The notes beneath the pieces were generated by a model that made no database searches, was not told the origin of the DNA, and was given only the letters and a program-made list of their open reading frames with translations. From positions 104,385 to 168,384 of the forward strand of contig JADKKE010000007.1 in NCBI GenBank assembly GCA_016720655.1: 64,000 bases of DNA, given 5' to 3'. Both the position numbers and the translations under genes were made by a program. Below are positions 14,098 through 58,562 of the stretch, one piece after another (position 1 is the first letter of the stretch; each line of letters begins with the position of its first letter). This DNA comes from Bacteroidota bacterium. Lineage in GTDB: Bacteria > Bacteroidota > Bacteroidia > AKYH767-A > 2013-40CM-41-45.

Positions 14098-14202
14098 GGT
14101 GATAAATGTAGAAAATTTGGAATGTGTTAAGGGGGAGCAATAAAAGCAAATTTTATAAATTTACCTCAGCCCTGAAAATCAAGGTCCTAAAAATTGCCCG
14201 AA

Positions 14203-14841: not shown

Positions 14842-14856
14842 TGGAATTGCCCTGAA

Positions 14857-34364: not shown

Positions 34365-34534
34365 GTTCGTTTTTTAAATCAACCCGACCCCGTCAAAACA
34401 AGGAATTTACGATGCCAATGTTTTAAGTAATTCTTAAAATAAATGGGCCTAAATATCGTTATTTCAAAGGAATAGCACCTTTGGGTTGACTCCTATTGAT
34501 AAAAAAACTTACCTTAGAGCCTCATTTAAAATCC

Positions 34535-35578
34535 ATGGAATTTACAGCCAGGCAAATCAGTGATCTTCTTCATGGCAAAGTTGAAGGAAATGAAGATGTC
34601 AAAGTCGGCAGTTTGAGTAAGATTGAAGAAGGAACACCGGGATCCTTAAGCTTTTTGGCAAATCCCAAGTATTCATCCTTTATCTATTCAACCAAGGCTT
34701 CTGTCGTCATTGTGAATGCTGATTTTGTTCCCGAACAGGCGGTGAGTGCCACATTGGTACGTGTAGAAAATGCATACCAGGCTTTTGTTAAACTTTTGGA
34801 ATTGTACAATCAGATTCAGAGGGACAAAAAAGGAATCGAACAGCCAAGTTTCATTGCTACGAATGCACAAATGGGAGAGAATTGTTATGTTGGTGCTTTC
34901 GCTTACATCGGACAAAATGCAAAGATTGGTAATAATGTTAAGATTTATCCCCAAGCTTTTGTAGGTGACAATGTGAGTATTGGCGATAACACAACCTTAT
35001 TCGCAGGAGCAAAAGTTTATTCCGACTGTGTGATCGGAAAAGAATGTACACTTCATACAGGAACTGTCATTGGTGCTGATGGATTTGGGTTTACACCGAA
35101 CAGTGAGAATCAATACAACAAAGTCGCACAGATTGGAAATGTGGTGATTGAAGACTATGTTGAAATTGGAGCAAATACAGCCATCGACAGAGCAACATTG
35201 GGTTCTACAATCATTCGCAAAGGTGTGAAGCTTGACAACCTGATTCAGATTGCCCACAATGTTGAAATTGGGGAGAACACTGTAATTGCAGCACAAACAG
35301 GTGTTGCCGGATCAACGAAAATTGGAAAAGATTGCATGATCGGTGGACAGGTTGGAATTGTTGGTCACATCACAATCGCAGATAAAGTAAAAATTGCGGC
35401 GCAATCCGGAATTGGATCCAGCATCACTACTGAAGGTGAAATCGTACAAGGCTCACCTGCATTCAACATTGGAGATTACAAGAGAACCTATGTTGTTTTT
35501 CGCAAGCTTCCCGCTCTGGAAAAAAGGATCAAAGAACTCGAGCAAATGATTGCAGAGTTGAAACAGATTCCTTCCTGA
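34535..35578 (+). CDS. lpxD: UDP-3-O-acylglucosamine N-acyltransferase
   Basis: N-terminal LpxD domain ([20 protein letters not shown]) and left-handed beta-helix hexapeptide repeats. The ORF opens at TTG 34496; the first ATG is at 34535. Confidence 0.92.
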
Positions 35579-35605: not shown

Positions 35606-38534
35606 TTATCGAAGAATCGAAAATCGTTTTGTCAAAATTGATTTTTCTTTTTCAATTACAAGAAAGTACAAGCCTTCCTGCAAGTTTGAAATCTCCAGTA
35701 CAAATTTCGAGTTTCCAATTTTTTTCTGAATTTGTAATTCACCGATCGAATTGTGTAGGTACAAATATCCATCGAGATATTCTTCAGACAATTCAATGTT
35801 GATAGCATTTTGTGCAGGGTTCGGATACATTAGAAAAGTTGTGCCGGAAATTCCTTTGTTCATGCCTGTAAGAAAGTGATAGAGTGTAGAAGTTGTGGTA
35901 CATCCATTTGTATCCAAAACTTCAACAGTATAATTTCCATCCAAAGGGTTAGGATAGGAAGATCCGGAAATTGCAGTATCGAGTATTCCATTAAAATACC
36001 AGTTGTAGCTCACAAAACCCGGCAATGTCCACAAAACGTTTGGTCCTTCAGTTATGAACAGCGCTGAGGTATAGAATACGGACACTTGGGTAGGAGCGGA
36101 GGCTGTGCATTGATTGCTATCTGTCACAGTGAGTGTATATACTTCTGTTGAATCCGGAGAAGCTGTAGGATTCGGGACATTTGGATCATCTAAAAAATTA
36201 AAAGGTGACCAACTGAATATATACGGAGGGATACCTCCATATCCGGAAGGGCTTCCACCGAGATCTACACTTCCACTGGTGCAATACGATGCAGCCAATC
36301 CGGGGTTTGTAATCAATTGTGGAGGCTGGGTGATGCTGATCAATTTTGTGTCGAAGCAGGAATGGATATCATTCACAACAACAAGATAATTACCGGCTCC
36401 GAGACCTGAAAGAGTGTTTGAATGAACAGATGTATCCGATTGCCAGGAGTATGTATAAGCGGGAGTTCCACCAGTGACATTGAGTACCACACTTCCGTTT
36501 GATTCACCGTAACAGGAAACATTTGTTTGACTCGCATTAATGCTGAGTTGTCCCGGTTCATGAATTGCAATAAATTCCTGGACAGTACATCCATTCACAT
36601 CCGTTATTGTAACTGTATATGTTCCTGCCAATACATTCGAAATTTGATTTGTAGTATTGTTGTTCGACCAGAGATAGGTGTATCCCGGAGTACCACCGCT
36701 CACTTGTATAGAAGCGGCAGAACCAAGAGTCGAGCCATTGCAATCCACTGAATCAACTGAGCTTTGAACAATCATTGCCCGGTGGAGCCTGAACAATTCC
36801 GGTGCTGGTTGATGTGCAATTGTGAGCATCTGTAATGATAACTGTGTAAGTGCCCGCTGCCAAATTAGATGCCGTATCATCGGTTTGAACAGGATTTGTA
36901 TTCCAGTCAAAAGAATATGGAAGTGTACCTCCGGAGGCTGTGACAAACAAGCCACCTGTAGCCTGACCCTGGCAAGCTGCATCAAGTACAGTAATTGACG
37001 AATTCAGTATATCAGGTTCAGAGATGGAATATACATCGACAAAAGAGCATCCGGAGTTATCTGTAACGGTAACGGTATAATCACCGGGCGATAAAGCACT
37101 CGCATTTTCAGTTGTACTTACATTGGGTACCCATGAAAAAGTATAAGGAGTGGTACCTCCTGTTGTAGTGAGTTGAATGGATCCATTGTTATTTCCAAAA
37201 CATGTAATCTGATTAATCGTTTGAACCTGCACAGATAAACTTGAAGGTTGCGTGATTGTTTCTGATGCAGTATTAGTGCAACCGATATTGTCAGTGACCA
37301 CTACAGTATATGTACCACTTGAAAGTCCTGTTGCTGTTTGAGTTAATGCACCACCGGGCGACCATTCATACTGATAGGGAGGAGCTCCACCGGAAGGTGT
37401 TGCTGTTGCAGTGCCATTGGCAAGTCCACATGTTGCAGCGGTAGAACTGGTATTAATGATGATTTCTGTAGGCTGTGTTATGCTAACCGTTGCACTTGCA
37501 GTACACCCGATTGCGTCCGATATTGTAACGGTATAAGTTCCACTTGTCAATGAATTTGCAATTGCATTTGATCCTCCCTGAGGTAACCAGGAATAGGTAT
37601 AAGGACTCGTCCCACCATTTGGAAACCCGGCAGCCGAACCATCATTTCCACCGAAGCAGGTAACATGGGTGGGATTGATCGTAGGTCCCATCGCAGGATC
37701 GACATTTATGAACAGAGTACTGAAAAGTCCATCTCCACATGCGTTGGATGCGTACACAGATATTTCACCAATTGTGCTGTTTGAAGTTGCATTGATTGAA
37801 TTTGTTGTCGAATTTCCTGTCCATCCCGGAGGCAAGGACCAAACGTAGGAGGTCGCTCCGGAAACCGGATTAATAAAATAGGTATTTGTAGAGCCCCCAC
37901 AGATGGTTGTTGCACCTGAAATGGAACCCGCCGGACCCGGAACATTGCATACATTTTCCGCGATCGTAAGTGTGGATAAAAAGGTTGTATCTCCTAGTGA
38001 AGTGTATACTGCTCCGCTACCCTCACATGCCAACAAGGAGCCATAGAAGATCACAGTACCGCTTCCTGCGGCGGGAGCGATCCAGTCAAAGGACCAGGAA
38101 GCTGAATTTGTGTTGGCGACACCGTTTCTTTTATGCGTTATATAACCACCACCGGGATAAGAAGCATAGGTACGGTTTGCATCAGTGACCACCAATGTGC
38201 CCAGTATTTGCGCGCCATTCTGAGGGGAAATTGAAAATCCAAAATGAGTATGGCCCGGACGGTTCAGAGATGCGGTGAGTGAATAAGTTACGCCGGGTGT
38301 ATACCCTGCAGGTGGAATGTTGGACGTGATAAGTCCGGGAATTGTGATGGGCGCAGCTCCGGTATGACAACCAGTAAAAGCACAGGATTTTCCATCCAGT
38401 GGAGAATTGGTGCAATTGTAATTGGTTAGAAATACATCGGAATAGGAGCGCGCAACATTTTGAACAGAATCAATGATGATGAGAAAAATAAAAAAGCAAA
38501 AAAGACAAAAAATAATTTTGTTTCTGGCAAGCAT
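35606..38534 (-). pseudogene. Large T9SS cargo protein: Reeler-like N-terminal domain + about six SprB repeats + T9SS CTD; one indel
   Basis: ORFs 36753..38588 and 35606..36985 join at about 36778-36782 (...STGIVQAP | AMIVQSSVDSVDCNG...). SprB-type repeats follow the pattern CxGxxxGS...GGTxPYTYSW. The CTD is MYPNPAQNAINIEL...GLYFLVIEKEKSILTKRFSILR. The likely start is MLARNKII at 38534. Confidence 0.8.
36430..37680 (-). repeat. Tandem SprB-type repeats (about 75-80 aa each, at the protein level)
   Basis: The repeat heads are HVTCFGGNDGS, ATCGLANGT, QITCFGNNNGS, DAACQGQATGG, DCNGSTLGS and NVSCYGESNGS. Each is followed by GG(T/A)xPY(T/Q)(Y/F)xW and ...GxYTVT(I/V)TD. Confidence 0.7.
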
Positions 38535-38741
38535 AATTTCAGAATTTAAAATGTTGAAGGAGAGGAATTCAAAAATGCACTTTAGCAAATTTAGGTTTTA
38601 AGCTGTATTTTCCAAATTCATTTTTCAATTAATTTCCTATTGCCTTGATTTGAGTCAAAGTGGAACTTTCAAAGGGTTAATGGAATAGTGTTTGGACCAT
38701 TTATTATTTTTTATTTGCATCCCCAATACCAAAATTTTACT

Positions 38742-42921: not shown

Positions 42922-44580
42922 ATGAAACAACATTTGTATACAAGAATTTTCGCGCTTATTTTATTTCCTTTTTTCTGTGCTGGTCAAAATACCGGTTCAA
43001 AGAAAGCACTCATGAATAATCTGGATGATTTCCTGAGTGAATTTGCAAGTGTATCTTCTTTTCGTGAAATCGGTGGGACCGAGTTCTCGGAAACTCAGGC
43101 GACAAGGTTCAAAGAAATGTTTGTGGAAAATGCAATCATCTTTGATGACATCAATGCCTCTATTGTTGAAGATTTACTTGGCGGTAGTCCTTATCAACTG
43201 AAGAACAAACCACTCGACGAATACATCGCTGATGTCAGAAAAGGATTTCCTACAGGAATCCGTGTTGATATATTGAATTCGGCAATTGATTTTAGCAGAC
43301 TTGACAGCAATCTCATCAATATTGTCATCAATAAAAAAGTTAGCGGGAAATCATCAAGTCTCAACAGGTTTGAAAATAACGACACATTGCTTCTTGAAAT
43401 GATCGTCACCGCCGACAATCATTTTCAGATAAAGAAAATTAGTATGATCGGATCAAATTTTTCATGTGCAAATGATAAGGACAATGATGGAATTATCGAT
43501 GAACAGGATGCTTGTCCAGGCGTGAAAGGAGAAATGCGTTTCAAAGGATGTCCGGACCGCGACCGTGATGGTATTGCCGACAATGAAGATCAATGTCCGG
43601 ATGAATACGGTACATTTTTTAATAAGGGCTGTCCGCAGGAAGTGTTTACAAATAAATACGGAATCGATTTGTTTATAGGCTTTGTGTTGAATACGCCTGA
43701 GAATCTTATTCTGGAAAATTCGGCATTGGCATTTAACGAATTGGATGCTGAGAGAAGTACAATTGGTACCCTGACATATTCTTCAAAATCGGTTTCCAGC
43801 TTAATTAACGGATTGGAATTTTCCATGAGTTTGGATACGAACAAAACAATGGCGCTGGCTATTGGTGTGAACTATACTAAATTCAGCAGTGATTTAACCT
43901 GGGCTGGATTTCATGCAGAATACAAGGAGGTCGATAATAGCCTCGTTCAAACACCGTTCAGGAGAGTATTGACATTGAAGCAAACCAAAGAACATCTTGA
44001 ATCACAATATTTAACTGTTCCACTTCTTTTGAAATTCCGAAAAAGATTGAATGAAAAATTTGGAATCTATTATGAGTTAGGTCCTGCCTTCGATTTGATT
44101 AATTTGAATTCGGCAACAAGTTCTGTTGCTGATGAGGAAGCGATTTATGTATACAGCTCAATCTCCGGCGTGAAATGGACGTACTCGAAAAATTATTCGC
44201 CCTCCCCAACAGATTGGATAATCACCAGAGATATGGTAACTTCAAATTCAACAGGCGGAGCGAATGCATATTTTGCACTTTTACAGAATAATGGATTTGA
44301 TGTCGCCCTTGATAAACCATTGTCCGGTACTTCAGAGAAAATTTCGCGCATTGGTTTCAGTGGAATAGCCAGGGTTGGCGCTTTCTATATGGTTGACCGA
44401 TCCATAAGTATATTTGCAGGGATTGTTTATTCGTATCATTTTTCTTCCAAGAAACAAGATGGAAAGTATACGCCAATCGGAGAATCTCAGAATTATCAAT
44501 CTGTTATGAATGGAGTGAAAAAATACAATGGTCAGTCGATGGGAATGATGTTGGGAATAAAATATGGTTTTGGAAGATAA
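42922..44580 (+). CDS. P1: outer-membrane beta-barrel protein with N-terminal alpha+beta module and thrombospondin type-3 repeats
   Basis: Signal peptide MKQHLYTRIFALILFPFFCAGQ. TSP3 repeats DKDNDGIIDEQDACPG...DRDRDGIADNEDQCPDEYG. The roughly 320-aa C-terminal region has alternating strands and ends GIKYGFGR. The ATG is 11 nt after the upstream stop. Confidence 0.7.
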   Translation: MKQHLYTRIFALILFPFFCAGQNTGSKKALMNNLDDFLSEFASVSSFREIGGTEFSETQATRFKEMFVENAIIFDDINASIVEDLLGGSPYQLKNKPLDEYIADVRKGFPTGIRVDILNSAIDFSRLDSNLINIVINKKVSGKSSSLNRFENNDTLLLEMIVTADNHFQIKKISMIGSNFSCANDKDNDGIIDEQDACPGVKGEMRFKGCPDRDRDGIADNEDQCPDEYGTFFNKGCPQEVFTNKYGIDLFIGFVLNTPENLILENSALAFNELDAERSTIGTLTYSSKSVSSLINGLEFSMSLDTNKTMALAIGVNYTKFSSDLTWAGFHAEYKEVDNSLVQTPFRRVLTLKQTKEHLESQYLTVPLLLKFRKRLNEKFGIYYELGPAFDLINLNSATSSVADEEAIYVYSSISGVKWTYSKNYSPSPTDWIITRDMVTSNSTGGANAYFALLQNNGFDVALDKPLSGTSEKISRIGFSGIARVGAFYMVDRSISIFAGIVYSYHFSSKKQDGKYTPIGESQNYQSVMNGVKKYNGQSMGMMLGIKYGFGR

Positions 44581-44611
44581 TGTAGTCAGGTCAACTCTAA
44601 TAGAATAAAAA

Positions 44612-45541
44612 GTGGATAAAAGTGTACATGTAACATTTGCAATTACCTGCCTGTTGGCAATCGTACTTCTTGGACTGAAAATGAATGCGCCCGTCCCATG
44701 CGTTGAACCGGGAATTGTATTCACATCTGAATTTCCGAAGATCGGGGAGTCGGTTATATTTAAAGCGACAGGAACGGATAGCTCGGGAGTACTGTGGGAT
44801 TTTGGTGATGGGTCTGAGACTACAAAGGAATTCTGGCGACTCATAGTTATTCAAAACAGGGTAAATATACAGTGATGGCAAAGACAGCTACAGGTTGTCT
44901 GGCTGCGCGGAGTTGTATCAATTAGCCCGAAGGAACCGGAAACCAAATCCGTATTTCCGATTGTTAAATTGTCTTCAACTACCGTGTTTGTCGGTGATCG
45001 TGTATTGATTGAGGATCAAACCCCGGGAGCGAATTCTTGGTCATGGGATTTGGGAGAAAACGGACAAGTATCTGTTGAGCGTCGTGTATCGATGGCCTAT
45101 CTCACTCCGGGTAAAAAGGAAATAAGTCTTGCAATTAAAGGGGATGGAATTTCAGGAACATCGAGTTCAATTATAAATGTTCGGGAAAGACCGGAACCGG
45201 GAAAGAAACCGGTACCTTATACACCGCCAGCACCATCAGCCTTAAGTTACAAATACCATCCAATTTATTCGCCAAAATTTAAAGCCGCGGCAAATAGTAG
45301 AAACAGGGATGCAGCACTGCGACCTTTGGTACAAATGCTTTGCAATCAAAACGGAACGCATGTAAAATTGAATGTGGGTGTGCTGGATGAAAAGTCTTAT
45401 AATTTTTATGATTTCCGAACCAAGCTGAGCAATGACGAGCAAAGCAACTGGGTTGTTGACAGTGTCTTGATGCGATGGAGGAAATCAGATGGTGACGAAT
45501 GTATTGAAGATATTTATTTTATTATCAGTTCACATCGATAA
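44612..45541 (+). pseudogene. P2: membrane-anchored/secreted protein with two PKD domains and a C-terminal alpha+beta module; compensating -1/+1 indels
   Basis: WDFGDGSETT is in frame A. KGILATHSYSKQGKYTVMAKTATGCLAARSCIN is in the neighbouring frame, between about 44824 and about 44922. Frame A then resumes with SPKEPETKSVFPIVKLSSTTVFVGDRVLIEDQTPGANSWSWDLGENG, which is the second PKD domain. Confidence 0.7.
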
Positions 45542-45543
45542 GT

Positions 45544-46191
45544 ATGAAAAACCTGTACAAAATTTTTGGAATTTTATCAGCCTTGTTTTCAGTTCAGGCT
45601 GTTGCCCAAGAGGGTGCCCATGTGAAAAAATCATACACTACATATGATTTATTTTACATGGATAATAATCATGGGGCCAATGCAATTGGATTGAATGATT
45701 CACTGATTGAAAAGATGGCACAGGATGTTCGAAAATTATTAAAACAAGGAGAGGCAGGGTTTCTTCTTTTCCGTAGCAATGGAGATAGGGCACAGGTAAC
45801 GGAAAGAAAGGAAGATATTTTTACTTTTGAGTTCCGGGATGGAATTTTCGAGCAGAACACTGCGATCCCAAATTTTCTGGAAGATAAAAAGCGTCTCCGC
45901 GAAGAATTGTACGATTCCATCGGTGTCATCAGTGACAAATTAAACCTTCATTTTTATTTGTCAGAAAATGCCCTTCGAAGTTTACCCGAAGATCCGAATT
46001 CCATTCTCACGAATTTTGCCAGAGAATTTTCTGAATTATTTTCAGCAAAGAATGCTGAAGTGAATGTATACCTCTATTACAATCGTGATATCACTACATT
46101 GAATGAAAGTGCTCTGTCAAATTATCTGAATTTCTTTAATGGATCTACATATGCCGCAAGGAGAATTAATTTTACGATTATCAAAGGTTGA
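45544..46191 (+). CDS. P3: secreted hypothetical protein (215 aa)
   Basis: Signal peptide MKNLYKIFGILSALFSVQAVAQ. No recognisable family. The start is 2 nt after the P2 stop. Confidence 0.6.
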   Translation: MKNLYKIFGILSALFSVQAVAQEGAHVKKSYTTYDLFYMDNNHGANAIGLNDSLIEKMAQDVRKLLKQGEAGFLLFRSNGDRAQVTERKEDIFTFEFRDGIFEQNTAIPNFLEDKKRLREELYDSIGVISDKLNLHFYLSENALRSLPEDPNSILTNFAREFSELFSAKNAEVNVYLYYNRDITTLNESALSNYLNFFNGSTYAARRINFTIIKG

Positions 46192-46210
46192 GTTGAAAAG
46201 TAAAACTGTA

Positions 46211-48640
46211 GTGAATTTCCAATCTGTCAGTATTAACAGGAGGCCGGTTGCAACCCTTTTGCTATTGGGCATATTCTTTTGTCTGCCATTCATTTCACTC
46301 GCACAAGATCACGTGAAGGGGATGAAGGTAAAGCGAATGCCGAAAGATTATCTTGAACCAACAGGAAAGTTGGTTCCCGAAAATTCCAAGGCTTCCGAAG
46401 GGGAATATAGTTATTGGAGAGTGTATTCCGACAGAGACAATAATCAGACATTTAAAGATCCTTACTTGAAGACTCCATTCAAGACGATTCAGTTCATGGA
46501 TGCTTTTTTTGTCGTTCAGGAAAGGTGGAATGCCGTTCGTATTGCGAAATACGATGGGGCCCTTGGCGATAAATACACCATCCAACACGATTCATTGGAT
46601 TATGGATGGATTGAAAAGACACGCTTATTGTTGTGGAAGAAATGCCTGATCGATACTGTGAAGACAAATTTTAACCTGAAGGGTTTGGTTATCAGAAGTT
46701 ATAAGGTATTTGAGAATGCAGAAGAGCTGAAGCGACTTTCTCAGGAAAAATTTCCGCTCTATGCTTCTCCTGCATTAAAGTCCCGCACACAGAACGACAT
46801 CAATCTTTTTGATTTCTTGTTTATATATAAATACGAAAAGGGTGCCTACCTGATCGGTAAGCGGGAAGAGATCTCTGTGATGAGCGCTAAAACAGATGTC
46901 CTTGGCTGGGTACCGGAAGTTAATCTAAGGCCCTGGGGTCAACGCTTGTGTCTGGAACCGAATTCTAAACCGGATGCTGTAACAGAAAGAAAAACGGCAG
47001 GCTTGCGTGCAGGATTATTTGAATCAGAAGAAAAGGCAAAAAAATATCAGGCAGGAGATAAAATTAACCCGCTTCCGTATCAGGATCCATATGAAAAAGG
47101 TATGCAAATGTCTGAAAAGAGATTTCCTGTGATTGCGGATCAGAAAAACGGAATTCTGAAAACCGGCTTCATTACTTCGGTTCTTGATAAAACCGGAAAA
47201 GCAATTATCACAACAGATCAGCAAGCGGATATCGAAAAGAAATACAATCAGGCAAGAGAAGATTATCGGGTGATCAATATTGTATTTGTAATCGATGGCT
47301 CTGAGAAAGTTCAGCCCTATATGCAAAGTGTCATTAGTTCCATTCAGAATAGTATGAGTTTGCTAAAGATGGATACACGGAATAAATTTAATTTCGGGGC
47401 TGTTGTTTATCGCAATTACAATTGTCAGGATGATCAAATAGTATCACTTCAGGATCTCTCACCGAATATCAGTACGGTCACCGGTTTTTTACAAAAGCAA
47501 ACAACTACTGCCCAGCCATGTTCGAAAATGAAATCGGATGGAACTTCTTTGTATTACGGAATTTCCAAAGGAGTAAAATTGTTTCGGAAGAAAGAGCAGA
47601 ATAACATTATCATGGTTGTGGGTTGTGGTGGGAATTACCTGATCGACAAATATAATTTTGATGAAACAAATGTGAGTTCCGCTTTGGCTGACATGCAGTG
47701 CAGTCTTGTTTCGTTTCAGGTGAAATATTCAGGCGATGATGAGCAACGCTTTGTGAGTCAATCGAAAGAGTTGATCAAGCAATCGGCAAAAAAAATCCGG
47801 GATCGGTTGGATGATGTAAGACTTTCAAAGGCAGAAAGGCCAACAAGTATTAAGTTTGAAAGCACCGACAAGCGAATTCAAAACGAATATTCATTGGTTT
47901 TCCCGGGAGGGGATAGTCCGGTTCCGGGAAAATTAACTGCGGCTTCACCGAACAGACCCAATTCGCCATCGTACATTCAAGAGCAAATTGAAGAGATCAT
48001 TACAAACAGGAATGAAGACAATGAGAAAATTCTTGGGAAATGGGATGCGAAAGTAAAGGGGAGAGGAGCGACCACCGTGAAAATGGATGAAGAGTTGTAT
48101 TTGCTCCTTAAGAATTCAAAAATCGATCCTTCGGCATTTCAGAAACTTGATGTGAATACCAATTTCCAGATATTTGTCGAAGCATATGCATCAGTGAAAC
48201 AGAGTAAATTGAAAAAACCGCTTTTCAATTTCGTGCTGTTTATGGATGATGATGATTTGTACGAACTGATTATCCAATTCAGGAAACTTGGGAATGCAAC
48301 AACGGAACAGGAACTCAGAAAAAATCTGGTTGATTCGTATAAGCAATTGGCAATTTCTTATTATGGAGCTAGAGAATCCAAATCAGCAATCAACAAAAAG
48401 ACATTGTCTGAAATAATGGGACTAATCACGGGCCTGCCGTCAAGAAGTGATTTGTTTACAAAATACACTATTTCCGATTTGGAAAGTTCACGAGCAGTTA
48501 CGGTCCAAACATTGAAAGATATCGCCGGTGAAATCAACGATATCAAAACCGACCTTGAACGAATTCGATCACGCAAATCCTATTCATTTACCAGCTATGA
48601 TCAAATGTATTACTGGATCCCTGCTGAAGCGTTACACTAA
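46211..48640 (+). CDS. P4: about 810-aa secreted protein, SH3-like N-terminal region + vWA-like domain + helical C-terminal domain
   Basis: The in-frame GTG at 46211 gives MNFQSVSINRRPVATLLLLGIFFCLPFISLAQD (the ORF track opens at ATG 46139, inside P3). vWA-like INIVFVIDGSEKVQPYM...FGAVVYRNY...SDGTSLYYG...IIMVVGCGGN with a non-canonical MIDAS site. Confidence 0.65.
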   Translation: MNFQSVSINRRPVATLLLLGIFFCLPFISLAQDHVKGMKVKRMPKDYLEPTGKLVPENSKASEGEYSYWRVYSDRDNNQTFKDPYLKTPFKTIQFMDAFFVVQERWNAVRIAKYDGALGDKYTIQHDSLDYGWIEKTRLLLWKKCLIDTVKTNFNLKGLVIRSYKVFENAEELKRLSQEKFPLYASPALKSRTQNDINLFDFLFIYKYEKGAYLIGKREEISVMSAKTDVLGWVPEVNLRPWGQRLCLEPNSKPDAVTERKTAGLRAGLFESEEKAKKYQAGDKINPLPYQDPYEKGMQMSEKRFPVIADQKNGILKTGFITSVLDKTGKAIITTDQQADIEKKYNQAREDYRVINIVFVIDGSEKVQPYMQSVISSIQNSMSLLKMDTRNKFNFGAVVYRNYNCQDDQIVSLQDLSPNISTVTGFLQKQTTTAQPCSKMKSDGTSLYYGISKGVKLFRKKEQNNIIMVVGCGGNYLIDKYNFDETNVSSALADMQCSLVSFQVKYSGDDEQRFVSQSKELIKQSAKKIRDRLDDVRLSKAERPTSIKFESTDKRIQNEYSLVFPGGDSPVPGKLTAASPNRPNSPSYIQEQIEEIITNRNEDNEKILGKWDAKVKGRGATTVKMDEELYLLLKNSKIDPSAFQKLDVNTNFQIFVEAYASVKQSKLKKPLFNFVLFMDDDDLYELIIQFRKLGNATTEQELRKNLVDSYKQLAISYYGARESKSAINKKTLSEIMGLITGLPSRSDLFTKYTISDLESSRAVTVQTLKDIAGEINDIKTDLERIRSRKSYSFTSYDQMYYWIPAEALH

Positions 48641-48651
48641 GTGCCTGGTTC

Positions 48652-51130
48652 ATGGAGGAGAATTCTTTGGTTGATGAAAGTGTATTTTATATTTCTGATC
48701 TGTCGTGTTCCTACGACCGGACAGTTGAAAACCGGGTGCTTTACATCCGTGAATTCGGGATACCTCGTGGTAAGCTGACATTTTTATTGGGAGCATCCGG
48801 TTCAGGGAAAAGCACATTGCTGGAGACCCTGGGATTAATGAACAATACTTTTGCTGGAGGGGAAGCACATTTTGTTCCGGGCGCAAATGCTGAAAAATTT
48901 GCTTTGGATACTGTTTGGAATTCTGAAAATCAGGAAATTTTAAACAAGATTCGAAAACTTCACTATAGTTTTATTTTTCAGGAAAATAATCTGATGGATG
49001 ATTTTTCTGCTTTTGAAAAATATTTGTCTTTCTCAAATGGTGAAAGACAAACGTACATTTTCAGAAGTGGTTAAGCCTGCAGAATTAATTTTAAAACGAA
49101 TAGGATTAACCGCAAAGGAAGTGAACGAACACACAATGGCTACTAATCTATCTGGTGGTCAGCGTCAACGTTTGTCTTTTGTACGTGCGCTCAATGTAAA
49201 TTATTCGGTTTTGTTCTGCGATGAGCCGACGGGTAATCTCGATGAAGTGAATGCTCACGAGTTGATGGAGATTGTAAAAGGTTCCTGTTCTTTTACCCGC
49301 TCAGCAATTGTCGTTTCACATGACATTAACCTTGCAATAAAATATGCTGATCAGATTGCTGTCATCACCAAACCACCAGGAGAGAAGTATGGTGTAATCG
49401 ATTCGGGAAATATTTTTAACCGGAGTGAATGGGAGAATCAGTCGAGCGAAGACCGTGGTGTATTCCGTGAGAAATTGCGGGCTTTGTATTTTTCCAAAGA
49501 GAAACACCAGGAAGCCGAGGTGCAAACCAGGGCCGTTCCGCTTTCTGAAACAGGTTTTACAAAATTGTTTATCCGGAATGAATTGCGATCACTGTATGGA
49601 AAAAAGTATGTAAATTATTTTATCCTTTTATTTCTCACTGTTTTTTCATTGCTGGTTCTCGGATTTGCTAACGGCACGCTCAATTATATTGATCTTAAAT
49701 TGAAAGATGCTTTTGTGAACTGGGTGACAATTAAAATTCCCTGGGCGCAGTCGGGAGATCGTTTTCAGGAAATCAAGGAAAAACTGAATGAACCGGCAAA
49801 TGCCCAGCGATATCGGTATTCCTCAGCGACAAGTTATCCGGAGTTTTCCATGCCGATTTTCGATAAAAACTCTCATGATAAATACAGAGTTTTTTCTGAA
49901 AAGGGCCGGACTATTGAAAATGGTTCTCCACCAGATCCGATGCTCAAAGATATTTTGTCGGCAAGTAATCTGGTTCAAGGTTCTGTTTTTAGAAGTACTT
50001 CAGATTTTGGGCTGATCGTTTCCAGTCAGTTGCTTTCAAATTACCATTATTCGCTCAACGATCGATTCCTGTATGTTGGATTCAAAATTTTCGATGGACA
50101 TCAGGATGTTTATGAGCGGATTCCGGTTCCCATCAGAGCAGTTGTCCGATCCATTCCAGGAAAAAATTTATTTATTACAACGAATTATTTTAAAATGGCC
50201 TACGATCAGGCCGATGGAAACACTTTTGATCCACAGGTTCACCGGAACAAAATATGTTTGTATCTGGCCATTTCTGAACCCGAAATTCCTGCGATCACCA
50301 AAGACCTACGAAGCTCTGTTTCAGAAATGAAAGAGTTTTCAGAATGGAGCCCGGGTGTAGACATCGTTACAGATCAATCTGTCGATACAGGACAATCAAA
50401 AATCGCCGAAATTCGTTTTTCACCGGAACCGGAAGACACAATGGTAGCGGGAACATTCATCCGGAAACTTTTTTCTTTGCAATCCATGAAGAAATGGGAG
50501 GGAAGAGCAATACCCTATTATGACCTGTCACAATTCAATGAACAACTTCCGGAGTTGACGGATGATATTTTGTGCATTAATTTTAATGGCGATCTGGATA
50601 GTATCCGTTCCTTTAAACAATTTATTTTCAGTCTGAATAAACCGGAAGAAAAGGATGTAATTGAGTTGGATGATTCAGCGATCAGAGAAAAGGAGAATTA
50701 TAATTTCATGAGTAAAGTTACATTGATTATATCCTTTGGGCTTTTGTTTTTTGCTGTTTTTTGTATCGCTTTATTCATCATGAATGTACTCCGCTTGCAT
50801 TTGTTACAAGTGAAGATGAATCTTGGAACATTAAAGGCATTTGGATTGAATAACGCGGAGACAAATCAGTTGTACATAAAAATTATGCTTCTGTTTGTGA
50901 TCCTCGTCATGATCCCTGGTTTTACGATTGCTTATTTCATTGGTAAGTTGATTGACCGAATGATCGGATCATTCCTTGCGATGGATCAGAATTATACCTA
51001 CTTCCAGATTACAGATGGATTGATCCTGGGAATTATCCTGATCATCTTTTTGGTCTCAATGCTTGTAACCGGATTGGTTGCACGGAAGATACTCCTTAAA
51101 TCTCCGGGTGATCTGATCTATAACCGTTGA
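48652..51130 (+). pseudogene. P5: MacB-type fused ABC ATPase + FtsX-family permease; one +1 indel in an A5 run
   Basis: Walker A GASGSGKST, signature LSGGQRQR, Walker B LFCDEPTGNLD, H-loop VVSHD. Then TM1, a roughly 410-aa extracytoplasmic domain, and three TMs with GTLKAFG. ORFs 48652..49074 and 48998..51130 join at gaAAAAAt 49016-49020 (...DDFSAFE | NICLSQMVKDK...). Confidence 0.8.
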
Positions 51131-51168
51131 AAATAATATTTCTATTCAGACCACTTCATGCCTTTCAA

Positions 51169-53946
51169 TCAATGCAGGTACTGATTACAAATTGCGATAA
51201 AGTCTGAGTTTTTGGAAAGCGATGAGAGGAGGGGGTCGTTTTTAATAGCTTTTTTCGAAAATGAACCGGTGGCAAATGCTTCTTTAAAGCTATCCATTGC
51301 TTCACTATTTTTGTTTTGCATGGAAAGTGCAATCCCTTTGTACAGCAAGCCTTCAGAGTTTCTTGAATCGGTTTGTAAAATCTGACTGATGCAATCCATG
51401 GCACGAATAGGATCGTTTAGCTTCAGGTAGGAATACGCCATCTTCTTGTTGAGAACCGGTTCGGAAACATAAGACTTGTCAATTTTTTTAGCGCTCTTGA
51501 AATCTTCTATCGCCATTGGGTAATTCGCTTTTTGCACCAGGCACAAGCCACGCAAACGAAAGGCCTCCGGATCCATGCTATTCTTCTGGAGATATTTGTT
51601 CAGGTCAGTAAGTGCTGGGTCATAATCTTCCATTCGGATCAGGCATTGGGCTTTGTGAAATAATGCTTCTGATAATTCCGGATTGTGACCAAGAGCATGA
51701 TTGTAATCTTTGATCGCCTGTTTGTATTCGTTCAAATCAAAATAGACATTTCCTCTGCCAACATTGAAATCCGGATCGTCTTCGTCACGATCCAATGCTT
51801 TGGCATAAAAATCCAGAGCTTGCTGGGGTTGATGGAGCTGTGAATAGGCGTTCCCGATGTAATAATATATTCGTGCAGAATCTTTTTTCAAAGTTAGTGC
51901 CTCGTTAAAATAACTGATTGATTTTGCATATTCCTTTTCTTTAAAATAAGTATGTCCCAGATAAATTTTAGCCGGATAAAAGTTCTGTCGAATGTCCAGT
52001 GATTTCAGAAATGAGAATTTCGCACTATCAAGTTGCTCGTTTTCGAAATATGCAATTCCGAGGAGATAATGATTTTGAAAATCGGTATTTTCCAAATTGC
52101 AGGCGGTCCTGTAATCGGCAATGGCTTTCCGAAGGTCTCCCAATTTAGTATACGCATTGCCCCGGGCAACGAAATAATCTGGCTTGCTGTCGTATAACTG
52201 TATGGCGGAATTCAGAGAGACGAGTGAATTCTGAGGGTTACTGATGCCCTTCACACCTGTATAAAATTCGTCAGCTTTTTGCTGGATTTTATTTTTTAAA
52301 TCTGCATTTAATCCCTGAGAAATTGCTAACCTGAAATAATTTCCAGCTCGCTGATAACGATCGGATTTGGATTCTTTCATCGCAATTAATCCAAGATAAT
52401 AATTCGCTTCCGGATAAATTTTTCTTTTTTCTATTGCACGCGTGAAATTTTTGGCGGCGATTTCATTTTCGTTCGATAAAAATTCTACCTCACCCAATTC
52501 AAAGTAGGTAACCGGATTGTCGACATTTACCTGGAGAGCAGATTCGTAATCACGGATTGCTTTATCGTATGCTCCAATTTCTTTTTGTGCTCTTGCACTC
52601 GATAGAAAATAGTAGTCGTTTTTTGGATCCTTTGATTTGAGGATCGCGTAATCACTCAGTGCACCGGCACGATCTTCATTTTTCATTTTGGTTTGGGCTC
52701 TCAATTCGTAAGCATCCAGGTAATTTTCATCCATGGATGTCGCTTTTGAAAGATCTTCCAATGCCCGCTTAGGATTGTTAGAAGCTACGTAAGCCTTAGC
52801 TCTCCAGAAATACAGTTCAGGGGTCACTTTGTTGTCAGTTTGAATATCTTTCGAACAGCTGTTAATGATTTGATCGAACTGATTTCTACTGAACAATCCC
52901 TGCAAGCCCTCTGTCTTGGAAAGAATGGGTTGGATTTGTTGCTTGCGAAGTTCAGTATTCGGATCTCTGTATTTTGCATCCAGCAAAGCCAATTTAGAAT
53001 ACAAACTGTCGGTAAAGTGATAGCGACGGAATTTGTAAGCATAATCAGCTTGTTCTTTCCATTTTCTTGAATTCTGTTCGATGCCTGTAACAGTCGAGAG
53101 TTTTTCCTGGTAGTCTTTCAGTTTTAACTGATAGGCAGTATTGGAAGGATCAAAACTGATAGCTCTGCGTATGAAACTAACAGCATCTTCATACAAACCT
53201 CTGCGTGCAGCCTGTTCGGCTTTGTCGGCCTGCTCTGAAGCTTTACCGCCTGCAGTAGAAATCGGATCCGGTGCGGCATCGCAATCGATCGCTCGGGCAA
53301 TATCGGTGACTTCATTCTTCGTATCATTCTGGAAAGCATCGGCATTTGCATAACTGATGGAATTGATTGTGACTGTCCATTCGTTTTTACCGCTACCTGA
53401 TTTGCCTGTCAATTCTACCCGCATTTCTGCAACTCTCGAAAATTTTGGATAGGTCATTCCGGTTGCAGTATGCTTTGCTTTGTATTCGCAATCGTAATAT
53501 ATATTTACATAGTAATAACTTGTCTTCTTGAGGTTAGAGCATCGGATATTTTTGAAGAAGATTGTATTTTCATCATCATCGTTTTTCTGGTAACCGGAAT
53601 ACAATTGATTCAGATACTTTTTTACATACAAATTTTCATTCCATTTATTTGAAATGATTAATTGTGGATCCACATCATTGGAGATAATAACGGAATCATT
53701 ATAAAATAAACGTGCCTGTCCTTTGGTTGCAGTGGTATACGACTCATCGAAATCTTGTTTGGTAGTACTTCCCCAGGTGATGAAATTCATTCGGTCTTGC
53801 AAGGCCATGATGCGATTCTCAGCACGGAACCGAATGTTCACGGTGTCTTTGCAGGTAATCAGTCCTTCTTGTGCTGTTGAAGAATAATGAAAAGAAAAAA
53901 AGAGGAACACTACAATAACAATAGTCTTATTCATCTTGTGGAACAT
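51169..53946 (-). CDS. P6: 925-aa secreted TPR-repeat protein with unique N-terminal alpha+beta module
   Basis: Signal peptide (MNKTIVIVVFLFFSFHYSSTAQ). A unique region of about 240 aa is followed by more than 15 TPR-like repeats (recurrent A..y..Al..dP.n..a....g pattern). The start overlaps the P7 stop. Confidence 0.75.
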   Translation of the reverse strand: MFHKMNKTIVIVVFLFFSFHYSSTAQEGLITCKDTVNIRFRAENRIMALQDRMNFITWGSTTKQDFDESYTTATKGQARLFYNDSVIISNDVDPQLIISNKWNENLYVKKYLNQLYSGYQKNDDDENTIFFKNIRCSNLKKTSYYYVNIYYDCEYKAKHTATGMTYPKFSRVAEMRVELTGKSGSGKNEWTVTINSISYANADAFQNDTKNEVTDIARAIDCDAAPDPISTAGGKASEQADKAEQAARRGLYEDAVSFIRRAISFDPSNTAYQLKLKDYQEKLSTVTGIEQNSRKWKEQADYAYKFRRYHFTDSLYSKLALLDAKYRDPNTELRKQQIQPILSKTEGLQGLFSRNQFDQIINSCSKDIQTDNKVTPELYFWRAKAYVASNNPKRALEDLSKATSMDENYLDAYELRAQTKMKNEDRAGALSDYAILKSKDPKNDYYFLSSARAQKEIGAYDKAIRDYESALQVNVDNPVTYFELGEVEFLSNENEIAAKNFTRAIEKRKIYPEANYYLGLIAMKESKSDRYQRAGNYFRLAISQGLNADLKNKIQQKADEFYTGVKGISNPQNSLVSLNSAIQLYDSKPDYFVARGNAYTKLGDLRKAIADYRTACNLENTDFQNHYLLGIAYFENEQLDSAKFSFLKSLDIRQNFYPAKIYLGHTYFKEKEYAKSISYFNEALTLKKDSARIYYYIGNAYSQLHQPQQALDFYAKALDRDEDDPDFNVGRGNVYFDLNEYKQAIKDYNHALGHNPELSEALFHKAQCLIRMEDYDPALTDLNKYLQKNSMDPEAFRLRGLCLVQKANYPMAIEDFKSAKKIDKSYVSEPVLNKKMAYSYLKLNDPIRAMDCISQILQTDSRNSEGLLYKGIALSMQNKNSEAMDSFKEAFATGSFSKKAIKNDPLLSSLSKNSDFIAICNQYLH

Positions 53947-54814
53947 TTAAAAATTGTTTTTTATAAATTGGCTTTGAACTGTATTTTACAAACAAGAGAT
54001 TGCTGATCAACCAACCGGAATTTCTGGTGTTGCGGTTGAAATTCTCGACAACCATTACATAGTTTGGAATCTGAAGAAAATGGTAGGAGATGTGCTGTAC
54101 AAAGTCAAAGCGAAGTGATTTTTCTTTCACTAATTTGATCAACAGTTGCATCTGATCGGTGAGGGGTCCTTCGTACAGGTAATCTTTGAATTTATCAGGT
54201 TCTTCAAACGCCTGGTACAAGTTAACGAAATTTGTACCATGACTCATGGGATCAAGAAAAACGCTGGTCTGGTTTTCCGGGTCTCGTAAATCGGAACCAC
54301 ACAAGCGGGGAACTGGGACTTTCGATCCGGATTTTGGATATTTAAAATTCAGAAAATCTGCCATCGCACTTACAACAACCCATTTCGTTGAATGATCTAT
54401 TCCTTCTTCGATTTTAAGTGTAAGATCCAATTGCTTTGATTTGCCCAAATACGTTACTCGACAACGAACATGCGCAAACCAGTCTTTGTCTTTAAAATTC
54501 AGAAAAATTGGTGCGCCTCGTTTGGTTACTGTCATAGTAAAATGCTTCAATGTTGACGTATCCCATCTCTGGTTTCGGTCAAACAAAGATTTTACCATTG
54601 TCGAACGTAGTGGCAGTTTACCACGGTTGTAATTCTTCAGATTTTGCACGAATACAGAACTCGTGTCTTTATTGAACCTGTCAATAAATTCATCGAGTAT
54701 TTTTACTTCCAGGGCATGGTTTTCTTTCCAGCGCGTGTCTTCAACGAGACCCTGTGACTGAACTGAAAATGAAAGCAGAAGAAAAGTGTAAAGAAGAAAT
54801 TGTTTTTTATTCAT
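53927..54814 (-). CDS. P7: secreted hypothetical protein (295 aa)
   Basis: Signal peptide MNKKQFLLYTFLLLSFSVQSQ. No recognisable family. The start is 3 nt after the P8 stop. Confidence 0.6.
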   Translation of the reverse strand: MNKKQFLLYTFLLLSFSVQSQGLVEDTRWKENHALEVKILDEFIDRFNKDTSSVFVQNLKNYNRGKLPLRSTMVKSLFDRNQRWDTSTLKHFTMTVTKRGAPIFLNFKDKDWFAHVRCRVTYLGKSKQLDLTLKIEEGIDHSTKWVVVSAMADFLNFKYPKSGSKVPVPRLCGSDLRDPENQTSVFLDPMSHGTNFVNLYQAFEEPDKFKDYLYEGPLTDQMQLLIKLVKEKSLRFDFVQHISYHFLQIPNYVMVVENFNRNTRNSGWLISNLLFVKYSSKPIYKKQFLNVPQDE

Positions 54815-54817
54815 TCA

Positions 54818-55864
54818 CTAATTGGGGCTGGTTTCCTGTACAAGAACATCAACTAAGAAAACATCCCAGTAGTCCTGAGGAATGCCATTCTCGAATTTCT
54901 GAATTTTTTTTACGACAACTTTAATGCTCTTCGTAGTAAGATCTTCATAAGCAGGTAAATCTTTGACATAGCCGATAAAGCGTTGTTTAAAAGAAACCCA
55001 GCCGTAGAAATTACCATCCGGACCTTTTTTCAAGTCTTTCACCATGTAATAGTCCGAAGTTTTAATTTCTACTTTTTCATATTGCAACATGCGCAATCGA
55101 TTCAGATATTTTCGAACCTTCAATGGTTTTTGAGCCTGAGGCTGACGAATTGAAGTAACTCCGATCGTTGAATTTTCATTGAGGAAAAGATCAAGTGCAT
55201 TTAAAATACTTGTTTGTGCAATATCTTCAAGTGTTGATTTGTCTGCAATAATTCCAATCAGCTGGCCAAATGTCCTTGACTTGATAAGCGCTTTGTCTTT
55301 CAATTCCGCCATTGTAGTCTCGTCCAGTGTTGTTGTTGAATTATCCACAGGCTTTACATAAACGTCTTCCTTTGGTTGTTCAACCGGAGCCGTCGATCCT
55401 CCGTCACTAACTCCTGAATTCGTGTTGTCAGCGGGAGGTGGAGCAGGACTTTCAGTAGTAACAGTGTTCTCGGAGATTGCAGGCTCAGGATTCGAGCTCA
55501 TTGATGATGCAGTATAATCCACTGAAATATCATAAGTCGCTTTAGTTGTGAATACATCATTTCCAAGAAAGGTTTTTAAATCCCTGAGCTTTTTATTTGG
55601 AAAGGACATCGTGAATTTATTCTCATTTCCAAACATTGCTCTTTCCAGATAATAACGCACGGAATCGTAATCCTGGATCTTCAGATCGTTGCAAACCCTT
55701 CGCAGACAGAAATAGTAATCATCGTTCGGATCCTGATTCACAAAATCATCCATTTCTTCAGTAGAACAGGTTGGGGCTTCCTGAGCTCGAGTGGGTGCAC
55801 CGGAGAAAATGAAAAAGAAGAGAAAGAAAAAGAAGGAGAGAGAGGAGATGTTCTTAAATTTCAT
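54818..55864 (-). CDS. P8: secreted hypothetical protein (348 aa) with Pro/Thr/Ser linker
   Basis: Signal peptide MKFKNISSLSFFFFLFFFIFSGAPTRAQ. A Cys-containing N-terminal domain, a low-complexity linker (NPEPAISENTVTTESPAPPPADNTNSG) and a C-terminal alpha+beta module. Confidence 0.6.
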   Translation of the reverse strand: MKFKNISSLSFFFFLFFFIFSGAPTRAQEAPTCSTEEMDDFVNQDPNDDYYFCLRRVCNDLKIQDYDSVRYYLERAMFGNENKFTMSFPNKKLRDLKTFLGNDVFTTKATYDISVDYTASSMSSNPEPAISENTVTTESPAPPPADNTNSGVSDGGSTAPVEQPKEDVYVKPVDNSTTTLDETTMAELKDKALIKSRTFGQLIGIIADKSTLEDIAQTSILNALDLFLNENSTIGVTSIRQPQAQKPLKVRKYLNRLRMLQYEKVEIKTSDYYMVKDLKKGPDGNFYGWVSFKQRFIGYVKDLPAYEDLTTKSIKVVVKKIQKFENGIPQDYWDVFLVDVLVQETSPN

Positions 55865-56251: not shown

Positions 56252-57739
56252 ATGGCTGAAAATCAGACAGTTGTAGAGGCTTCCGTAGTTAAGAAGGAAA
56301 GCCCGTTACCTTCTCCTGCCCCCGAAATCATCCGACAGACCACTATTCTGCATCCGGTGACCGCATCGGGCGTTGGATTGCATACTGGCGCTAGCGTCAA
56401 TCTTACTTTCATGCCGGCTCCGGAAAACCATGGATATCAGTTCAAACGAATTGACTTACCGGGTCAGCCTGTAGTTGAAGCAGATGTAGATAACGTGACT
56501 GATACCGATCGTGGTACCACAATCAGTAAAAACGGTGCCCGAATCAGCACTATTGAGCACGTACTGGCAGCTTTGGCCGGAATGGAAATAGACAATGTCC
56601 TGATGGAAATTGATGGTCCGGAAGTGCCGATTATGGATGGGAGTTCCAAGCCTTTCATCGACCTTCTTGAAAAAGCTGGAATCCAGGAACAACGCGAGGA
56701 ACGTCGGTACTACATGCTGAGTGAGAATATCACTTACGAAGATCCGAAGAGAAAAACTGAAATGCTTGCTGTTCCCAGTGAGGATTTCAGGATCACTGTA
56801 ATGGTTGATTACAACAGCGACTTGTTGGGTACGCAGCATGCGACACTTTACAATATCGGAGAGTTTAAAAATGAAATCAGTGATTGTAGAACGTTTTGTT
56901 TTCTACACGAACTGGAAATGCTCCTTGACAATAATCTCATCAAAGGCGGCGATATCAATAACGCGATTGTCGTGGTTGATAAACCCGTATCGCAGCAACG
57001 TCTCGATCATCTCGCGAAAATTTTCAATAAAGAAAAAGTAACAGCTGAACGCGGATTTCTGAACAATGTGAAACTTCATTTTCAGAATGAACCTGCCCGT
57101 CATAAATTGCTTGACATTGTGGGTGACCTTGCTCTTGTCGGAGCTCCGCTAAAAGGCCACATTCTCGCAGCCCGTCCGGGTCATGTAGCAAATGTTGAAT
57201 TTGCTCGAAAGATCAAGGACCTGATGAAACGTGACAGGTTCCGTGAAAAGTCACCGCGTGTTGATCTCAATGCGAAGCCGATTTACGATATCAACGGGAT
57301 CATGAAATTTCTTCCTCATCGTGCTCCATTTCTTTTCGTCGATAAGATCCTTGAATTATCCGATCGTCATGTCGTGGGATTGAAGAATGTCACAATGAAC
57401 GAATGGTTTTTCCCTGGACATTTTCCGGGTGCTCCGGTAATGCCCGGTGTGATTCAGATAGAAGCAATGGCACAGGTAGGAGGGATTCTGGTTTTGAATA
57501 CCGTTCCTGATCCGGAGAACTACCTCACGTATTTCATGAAAATCGACAATACCCGTTTCAGAGATATGGTGATGCCGGGCGATACAATTGTATTCCATCT
57601 CGAACTGATCTCGCCAATTCGCAGAGGGATCTGTCACATGAGAGGCAAAGCCTATGTTGGTGATAAAGTTGTCATGGAATCAGAAATGATGGCGCAAATC
57701 GTGCGACGCGACAAGAAAAAAAGTATTGAAGCCAGCTGA
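56252..57739 (+). CDS. lpxC/fabZ: Bifunctional UDP-3-O-acyl-GlcNAc deacetylase / 3-hydroxyacyl-ACP dehydratase
   Basis: N-terminal LpxC (GVGLHTGASVNLTFMPA...EHVLAALAGMEIDN...HKLLDIVGDLAL) fused to FabZ (LPHRAPFLFVDKI...FFPGHFPGAPVMPGV). This fusion is typical of Bacteroidota. Confidence 0.95.
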   Translation: MAENQTVVEASVVKKESPLPSPAPEIIRQTTILHPVTASGVGLHTGASVNLTFMPAPENHGYQFKRIDLPGQPVVEADVDNVTDTDRGTTISKNGARISTIEHVLAALAGMEIDNVLMEIDGPEVPIMDGSSKPFIDLLEKAGIQEQREERRYYMLSENITYEDPKRKTEMLAVPSEDFRITVMVDYNSDLLGTQHATLYNIGEFKNEISDCRTFCFLHELEMLLDNNLIKGGDINNAIVVVDKPVSQQRLDHLAKIFNKEKVTAERGFLNNVKLHFQNEPARHKLLDIVGDLALVGAPLKGHILAARPGHVANVEFARKIKDLMKRDRFREKSPRVDLNAKPIYDINGIMKFLPHRAPFLFVDKILELSDRHVVGLKNVTMNEWFFPGHFPGAPVMPGVIQIEAMAQVGGILVLNTVPDPENYLTYFMKIDNTRFRDMVMPGDTIVFHLELISPIRRGICHMRGKAYVGDKVVMESEMMAQIVRRDKKKSIEAS

Positions 57740-57773
57740 TTCAAGAGCTGAATCCGAATCAGAAATTCCATCC

Positions 57774-58562
57774 ATGAACAACAACCTCGTCGTCATACAT
57801 CCGAATGCCCGCATTGGTAAGAACGTAAAAATTGATCCGTTCACGATGATCCACGAAAATGTGGAGATTGGTGATGATACCTGGATCGGAAGTAACGTTA
57901 CCATTTTTCCCGGAGCAAGAATCGGAAGCAATTGCAAAATATTTCCCGGTGCTGTGATTTCTGCAGTACCACAGGATCTGAAATTTCATGGAGAAGATAC
58001 GATCGCTTCGATTGGTGACCATACGACAATCCGTGAATTTGTTACGGTGAACAGAGGGACTGAAGCGCTTGGGAAAACTGTTGTTGGAAGTCATAACCTC
58101 CTGATGGCTTATGTTCATGTTGCGCACGACTGCATCATCGGCGATCATTGTATTCTTGCCAATGGTGCTACTCTTGCAGGACATATTACCATTGCTGATT
58201 TTGCGATCATTGGCGGACTTTCTGCGATACATCAATTTGTTCAGGTGGGTTCGCATGTGATGATCTCCGGTGGATCACTTGTACGTAAAGATGTTCCTCC
58301 TTTTGTGAAAGCCGCGCACGAGCCATTGTCCTATGTGGGTATCAACTCTGTCGGTTTACGACGACGCGGTTTCAACAATGAAAAAATTGCAGAGATCCAG
58401 AATATCTACCGGACAATCTTCGTGAAAGGCTATAGCAATTCTCATGCACTGGATGTTGTGCAGAATGAAATGCAGGCTTCTCCTGAACGTGATCAGATCC
58501 TTTCCTTTATTCGCAGTTCCTCGAGAGGAATTATGAAAGGATATTCAAAAGATGAGGATTGA
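57774..58562 (+). CDS. lpxA: Acyl-ACP-UDP-GlcNAc O-acyltransferase
   Basis: Hexapeptide-repeat beta-helix plus a C-terminal helical domain (...LSYVGINSVGLRRRGF). The ATG at 57774 gives 262 aa; the ORF track opens at 57726. Confidence 0.93.
   Translation: MNNNLVVIHPNARIGKNVKIDPFTMIHENVEIGDDTWIGSNVTIFPGARIGSNCKIFPGAVISAVPQDLKFHGEDTIASIGDHTTIREFVTVNRGTEALGKTVVGSHNLLMAYVHVAHDCIIGDHCILANGATLAGHITIADFAIIGGLSAIHQFVQVGSHVMISGGSLVRKDVPPFVKAAHEPLSYVGINSVGLRRRGFNNEKIAEIQNIYRTIFVKGYSNSHALDVVQNEMQASPERDQILSFIRSSSRGIMKGYSKDED

Follow-up and report, generated by a model that had tools for sequence, protein, structure and literature searches.

Two neighboring envelope proteins of a Bacteroidota bacterium, here called P6 and P8, and probably a third one, P1, share an unnamed NTF2-like domain that is most likely a docking module. 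Their genes lie within positions 42,922 to 55,864 of a 64,000-nucleotide stretch of contig JADKKE010000007.1 (the window), in whose coordinates all gene positions are given. The region holds eight genes, of which P1 to P5 are on the plus strand and P6 to P8 on the minus strand, the two groups being convergent. It is not one unit but two separately conserved ones, P0-P5 (P0 is the gene directly upstream of P1) and P8-P7-P6, which changes the annotation of the locus.

Are the N-terminal domain of P6 (P6N) and the C-terminal domain of P8 (P8C) related? With profiles built from diverse homologues, hhalign aligned P6N and P8C over essentially the whole domain (156 to 157 columns) with a probability of 96.7% and an E value of 3.8e-10, and a second profile comparison reproduced this value. 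In a plain hmmsearch, the hidden Markov model (HMM) of P6N also matched over 40 members of the P8C family (best E value, 3.7e-9). These profile comparisons show that P6N and P8C are homologous. BLASTP among the single segments aligned nothing but a 13-residue KYLN stretch of P6 and P8 (E value, 0.077), and when a deep P8C HMM was run against all open reading frames (ORFs) of the window, P8 was the sole match, with P6 ranking third at an E value of 0.54. With profiles of close orthologues, hhalign placed every segment pair at background and a control pair scored best; such shallow profiles are thus uninformative. A homologue search with a chimeric query yielded 15 proteins, mostly close relatives.

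An initial annotation of this DNA had described a (K/R)xYLNxL-like signature in every segment that it took for a copy of the module. The peptides it quoted are all present at the genes named, and the literal form of the signature occurs in P6 and P8 but in none of the other segments. A six-frame translation of the window contained two matches to [KR]xYLNxL, one in each of these two proteins, compared with an expectation of 0.047 matches after shuffling (P = 0.003 for two or more). In P8C, the residues R77, K78, Y79, L80, N81, R82, and L83 are invariant in a five-sequence alignment (A2).

An AlphaFold2 (AF2) model of P8C based on 87 sequences reached a predicted local distance difference test score (pLDDT) of 96.1. 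In it, two long helices lead into two short strands, after which come helix 3, formed by the KYLN motif, and four long antiparallel strands (order of helices and strands, H H E E H E E E E; helices, H8-33, H39-52, and H76-84). Foldseek searches of the PDB with this model returned mostly NTF2-superfamily structures, with TraM (3wz3), a protein of the type IV secretion system (T4SS), in first place; ActVI-ORFA, LinA, dioxygenase beta subunits, LDB, the CaMKII hub, and NTF2/NXT1 were among the other matches. The helices of the model pack into a curved antiparallel sheet with at least four long strands, as expected of the NTF2-like fold, and P8C as modeled is an NTF2-like (VirB8-like fold) alpha+beta cone. 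P6N would share this fold, indirectly, through its full-length profile homology to P8C. The annotation had guessed such a cone, correctly for P8C and, by way of homology, for P6N. As in other members of the superfamily, three helices precede a long curved antiparallel sheet, in P6N by homology; on the other hand, P8C has no Pfam or NCBIfam sequence match, its TM-scores are only 0.45 to 0.6, helix 1 is of unusual length, and helix 3 is preceded by two short extra strands.

The domain defines a large family. A P8C profile made from five sequences matched 1037 clusters (50% identity) at an E value of ≤1e-3 among 1.84e9 representatives, 256 of them at an E value of ≤1e-30. In these proteins the domain either forms the C terminus of chains of 350 to 450 residues, whose N-terminal domains are of at least two kinds, or stands alone in ∼190 residues. 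No Pfam match to the domain was found in any of 87 family members, P8 and the P6 N terminus had no Pfam match at an E value of ≤0.1 and no NCBIfam match, and the P8C profile found nothing of note among PDB sequences. Two of the 87 proteins bear a trypsin-like peptidase domain; these are the sole Pfam matches in that set, so the family is unnamed. P8C and P6N therefore represent a previously unnamed family within a known fold, encoded in an uncharacterized conserved operon, with more than 1000 clusters, a confidently predicted NTF2-like structure, and a fixed set of three gene partners.

Does the module recur elsewhere in the region? The best candidate is the N terminus of P1 (P1N). Against P6N, P1N gave an hhalign probability of 32 to 59% (E value, 9e-5 to 5e-4) over 104 to 109 columns in the same register, and the score of 30.9 compares with a block-shuffle null of 16.0 ± 4.1. 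The AF2 model of P1N, built from five close sequences, is unreliable (pLDDT of 42.6); its elements follow the order H H H H E E E E, and all 50 Foldseek matches listed for it are NTF2-like, including VirB8, CagV, and TrwG. The element order and the Foldseek result of this model lend weak support to the presence of the module. A profile search with the P1N alignment returned one fragment only. Taken together, P1N is probably a distant and much more divergent NTF2-like copy, for which an NTF2-like fold is plausible. In one locus, L045, the P1N module is fused ahead of a TssR-type N-terminal barrel (5431-6819). Extra proteins of 450 to 500 residues with a TssR N-terminal barrel were seen there and in two further loci (L048, 3345-6232; L049, 6321-7820).

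The remaining segments fared less well. Compared with P8C, the C terminus of P2 (P2C) reached an hhalign probability of 3.6 to 18% over 57 to 76 columns, and its score of 25.0 was above the shuffle null of 13.0 ± 2.6; as judged from these profiles, P2C is at most a marginal candidate. P3 aligned with P6N and P8C at background, over 7 to 19 columns that covered the signal peptide only, and the alignment of its family reads as an alternation of strands and helices. Between P7, represented by a 25-sequence profile, and P6N, hhalign reported a probability of 8 to 10% over 14 to 31 columns around one shared KW hairpin. The diverse P1, P2, and P3 sequences were drawn from loci encoding TssR homologues (see below), and a fused P1N+P2C+P7 alignment was discarded since it placed distant homologues in the wrong block. 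A relationship of P3 to the TssR VWA domain was also rejected, as hhalign found none. At the level of profile comparison, the P2, P3, and P7 segments do not appear to be detectable copies. The claim of a module in at least five proteins, which the annotation had proposed to check with hhalign, is thereby reduced to two secure copies (P6N and P8C, at 96.7%) and one probable copy (P1N), with P2C marginal and P3 and P7 at background.

We then considered the genes around these domains. The first unit, P0-P5, belongs to a type VI secretion system (T6SS). P4 matches all four Pfam TssR domains (N-barrel, middle, VWA, and C-terminal; E values of 1e-11 to 7e-32). The T6SS-iii membrane complex consists of TssN-Q-O-P-R, and the architectures of TssP and TssR have been described (PMC10781749). 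P2 has the architecture and position of TssP, with an N-terminal membrane helix, two PKD-like domains, a third domain, and tssR as its neighbor; two PKD stretches are present in the intact P2 orthologue, and the place upstream of TssR is kept in at least 10 loci. On these grounds of architecture and position, P2 is TssP-like. We compared 12 loci (L041-L052) encoding TssR homologues of 25 to 51% identity. Most of them contain a protein sorted by the type IX secretion system (T9SS), a P1-like outer membrane protein, TssP, a P3-like protein of ∼208 residues, TssR, and an ATP-binding cassette (ABC)/FtsX protein, and several continue the run with ClpV, TssB, TssC, Hcp, and VgrG, with TssN and TssO nearby (runs of this kind are seen, for example, in L043, 3006-19042, and L046, 6573-22121). 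The most distant locus compared, L047, has a plain TssO-TssP-TssR-ClpV arrangement without these extras. A T9SS-tailed protein occupies the P0 position in L042, L044, L045, L046, and L051, a hint that this T6SS subtype may have a partner exported by the T9SS. We assign the P0-P5 unit to a T6SS-iii subtype, of which it forms the membrane-complex arm; tail and baseplate genes were not found among the window ORFs scanned.

Compared with the described complex (PMC10781749), this subtype shares TssR and a TssP-type protein adjoining it, and TssN, TssO, ClpV, TssB/C, Hcp, and VgrG adjoin the block in relatives. It differs by adding the outer membrane protein P1, the ∼208-residue P3, the ABC/FtsX protein P5, and the T9SS-sorted P0, and the P8-P7-P6 triad lies outside the described complex. 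Searching PMC10781749 for ABC transporter, OmpA, or beta-barrel as terms gave no match. A literature search on NTF2-like domains in the T6SS of Bacteroidota yielded no paper, and one on T6SS accessory genes (ABC transporter, outer membrane) returned unrelated genome papers only.

The second unit, P8-P7-P6, was followed in 37 metagenome loci obtained by a DNA-pattern scan with an alignment (A4) smaller than the over-diverse A3. Wherever these loci reach far enough, the order P8-P7-P6 is kept (P7 in 31 loci and P6 in 24), and no conserved neighbor was found in them besides P8-, P7-, and P6-like genes. The triad is therefore an autonomous three-gene operon. By our own reading of the translations, all three proteins appear to begin with signal-peptide-like sequences. 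Some loci depart from the plain triad: L006 has two P6-like tetratricopeptide repeat (TPR) genes (8312-15212), the short contig L040 has duplicated P8 and P7 fragments, and L007 has a stand-alone P8C-like gene between two Ser/Thr kinase genes (6811-7482, minus strand). A fourth gene often lies 3' of P6 (L006, 11351-12241; L007, 14271-15323; L016, 14583-15470; L019, 14716-15633). It has no Pfam match. One of its domains recurs in many P8-like proteins, where it lies N-terminal to the module, and is probably of an AQDVLYLxDG beta-repeat type.

Do the two units work together? For the annotation, a shared domain would have argued strongly for one functional system. They are conserved separately, and a P1-P5 homologue was found in 0 of the 37 triad loci. 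Nevertheless, the triad stands beside T6SS-iii genes in three different arrangements: it adjoins P5 convergently in this window; it is divergent from ClpV-TssB-TssC-Hcp-Hcp-VgrG in L004; and in L018 (1034-15455) it is part of a same-strand run of TssE, TssF, TssG, TssN, an unnamed gene, TssO, a BatD-like gene, an FHA gene, P8, P7, P6, and a PP2C gene. Given these juxtapositions and the possible copy of the module in P1, a functional link is plausible but facultative. Signaling genes are further neighbors of the triad, with Ser/Thr (Hanks) kinase genes beside it in L007, L010, L016, and L039 and PP2C phosphatase genes in L010, L016, and L018. BatD-like genes lie near it in L012, L015, L018, and L031.

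We propose, with a probability of roughly 55% for all parts taken together, that the region encodes a duplicated NTF2-like domain with a probable further copy in P1, that this domain is a docking module, and that the triad forms an accessory complex of T6SS and kinase signaling. The module would be a protein-protein docking or oligomerization domain and not an enzyme. The paralogous cones of P6 and P8 may pair with each other, which would link the P6 TPR scaffold with the variable N-terminal domain of P8; with P7 as a third subunit, a periplasmic complex would be built. We infer from this that the domain in P6 and P8 acts as a periplasmic docking or hetero-oligomerization module of a T6SS-associated scaffold. 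The complex itself might be a facultative accessory of Bacteroidota T6SS and of Ser/Thr kinase/PP2C/FHA signaling. Consistent with docking, the Foldseek matches of P8C include the oligomerization or docking proteins TraM, the CaMKII hub, NTF2/NXT1, and LDB, and the domains are modular: P8C occurs behind two kinds of N-terminal domain or alone, and P1N is also found on a TssR N-barrel. The region offers testable candidates for missing envelope and regulatory parts of Bacteroidota T6SS, whose membrane complex was described only in 2024.

Several observations weigh against this proposal. The triad is present in 0 of the 12 T6SS-iii loci compared, and 14 of ∼16 long triad loci lack T6SS genes within 10 kb; a T6SS link is thus at best facultative. 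The P1N homology does not reach the customary hhalign threshold, and the P1N model is unreliable. No kinase, PP2C, or FHA gene was found among the window ORFs scanned, and NTF2-like cones often bind small molecules and not proteins.

The signaling neighbors recall a known pathway. In the H1-T6SS of Pseudomonas aeruginosa, TagQRST-PpkA-PppA-Fha1 form a threonine-phosphorylation pathway in which the T6SS is encoded together with accessory proteins of the periplasm and outer membrane, an ABC complex of the FtsX type, and the signaling trio of Hanks kinase, PP2C phosphatase, and FHA protein. By analogy only, P5 and the FHA, PP2C, and kinase neighbors of the triad can be compared with these components, from which the window differs in the absence of the three signaling genes from its scanned ORFs; the triad complex may be the equivalent of the periplasmic arm in an activation pathway of the TagQRST/PpkA type. 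A stronger form of our proposal holds that P8-P7-P6 forms a periplasmic complex, undescribed so far, that assists or regulates T6SS-iii, with hetero-paired NTF2-like domains and the P1 copy as its docking site, and that together with P5 and the kinase, PP2C, and FHA proteins it is the Bacteroidota counterpart of TagQRST-PpkA. We regard this form as speculative, with odds well below even.

Could the triad adjoin T6SS genes here by chance, as part of a separate, Ser/Thr kinase-linked envelope system that also carries the duplicated NTF2-like module? We think this improbable, at about the level of the stronger form above. The neighbor counts speak for it, since kinase or PP2C genes stand beside the triad in five loci (L007, L010, L016, L018, and L039) versus T6SS genes in two metagenome loci, as do the 12 T6SS loci that lack the triad. 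However, three independent and differently arranged T6SS-iii juxtapositions were found among ∼17 long loci, where the chance expectation, a rough estimate and not a computed value, is well under one locus, and in L018 the triad is embedded in a run of T6SS genes on the same strand.

Somewhat less probable still is a ligand-binding or enzyme-like function of the NTF2 cone, toward a lipid, a lipopolysaccharide precursor, or another small hydrophobic molecule, with the triad serving envelope biogenesis or sensing unrelated to T6SS. Many of the Foldseek matches are indeed enzymes or ligand binders (LinA, ActVI-ORFA, ketosteroid-isomerase-like proteins, and dioxygenase beta subunits), the region lies between lpxD and lpxC/fabZ-lpxA, and most triad loci have no T6SS gene nearby. 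Yet the lpx neighborhood is conserved in 0 of the 37 triad loci, on which ground we rejected an lpx link of the triad; the domain has no match to a catalytic-type Pfam family; and two paralogues per operon, carried on scaffold-type or variable domains, suit assembly better than catalysis.

Very unlikely, finally, is the reading of the initial annotation, in which one alpha+beta module in P1, P2, P3, P6, P8, and perhaps P7 unites the 13-kb region into a single system through a shared docking domain: it gains from the true homology of P6N and P8C, the above-null scores of P1N/P6N and P2C/P8C, and the three arrangements of T6SS genes beside the triad, and it conflicts with the alignment of P3 through its signal peptide alone and the beta/alpha alternation of that family, the background result for P7 despite 25 sequences, a P2C probability no higher than 3.6 to 18%, the restriction of the literal signature to P6 and P8, and the independent conservation of P1-P5 and P6-P8.

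Our proposal of a docking module also invites comparison with VirB8 and DotI-TraM, in which an NTF2-like periplasmic domain serves assembly or oligomerization of a trans-envelope secretion machine, in that case the T4SS. TraM tops the Foldseek matches of P8C, and VirB8, CagV, and TrwG match the unreliable P1N model. In contrast, VirB8 is a bitopic inner membrane protein encoded in T4SS loci, whereas the domain described here comes after a signal peptide and another domain in P8 and lies ahead of the TPRs in P6 and of the beta-barrel in P1. We did not assign the domain to the VirB8 family, as the architecture differs and no T4SS genes were found among the window ORFs scanned; judging from the models, the resemblance would be at the level of the fold only.

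Table 1. Genes, modules, and signature motifs of the region, in window coordinates
Feature	Position	Strand	Description
P0	38804-42910	+	1368-residue GEVED/PKD protein with T9SS sorting tail, directly upstream of P1
P1	42922..44580	+	N-module, thrombospondin type 3 repeats, outer membrane beta-barrel
P1N module (probable)	42982..43491	+	P1 residues 21-190; N terminus of T6SS-iii-associated outer membrane protein
P2 (TssP-like)	44612..45541	+	Membrane anchor, two PKD domains, small C-terminal domain
P3	45544..46191	+	∼208 residues, conserved, between TssP and TssR
P4 (TssR)	46139..48640	+	All four Pfam TssR domains
P5	48652..51130	+	ABC ATPase fused to FtsX permease
P6	51169..53946	-	Signal peptide, P6N module, long TPR array (∼925 residues)
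P6N module	53347..53862	-	P6 residues ∼29-200, N terminus of TPR protein; paralogue of P8C
KKYLNQL signature of P6N	53602..53622	-	Y111 invariant
P7	53927..54814	-	Middle gene of triad
P8	54818..55864	-	Signal peptide, Cys-rich N-domain, Pro/Ser/Thr linker, P8C module
P8C module	54821..55342	-	P8 residues 175-348; NTF2-like domain, founding family member
RKYLNRL signature of P8C	55094..55114	-	Helix 3 (H76-84) of model

The coordinates of these features are collected in Table 1. The Pfam matches of P1 to thrombospondin type 3 repeats and an outer membrane barrel are weak, both being under the curated cutoffs, and P3, P7, and P8 belong to no Pfam family, with no further assignment from an NCBIfam scan. 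Two genes are disrupted in the window: P2 contains a 28-codon out-of-frame stretch with an in-frame stop (44827-44910), and P5 contains a single frameshift near 49004-49017, where relatives have an intact protein of 819 residues. In the relatives L001-L003 (TssR identity of 85 to 88%), the only loci recovered by a contig scan with a single TssR sequence and all of them close, both P2 and P5 are intact. Outside the region, a TonB-dependent-receptor-like gene (31930-34364, plus strand) looks split by a frameshift, with plug and barrel in overlapping ORFs, and a gene with SprB repeats and a T9SS tail (35606-38588, minus strand) likewise looks split into two overlapping ORFs. Four apparently frameshifted genes within 20 kb suggest indel errors in the assembly, genuine gene decay being possible as well. 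Together, ∼20 kb of secretion-related genes are flanked by lpxD (34496-35578) and lpxC/fabZ-lpxA (56252-58562).

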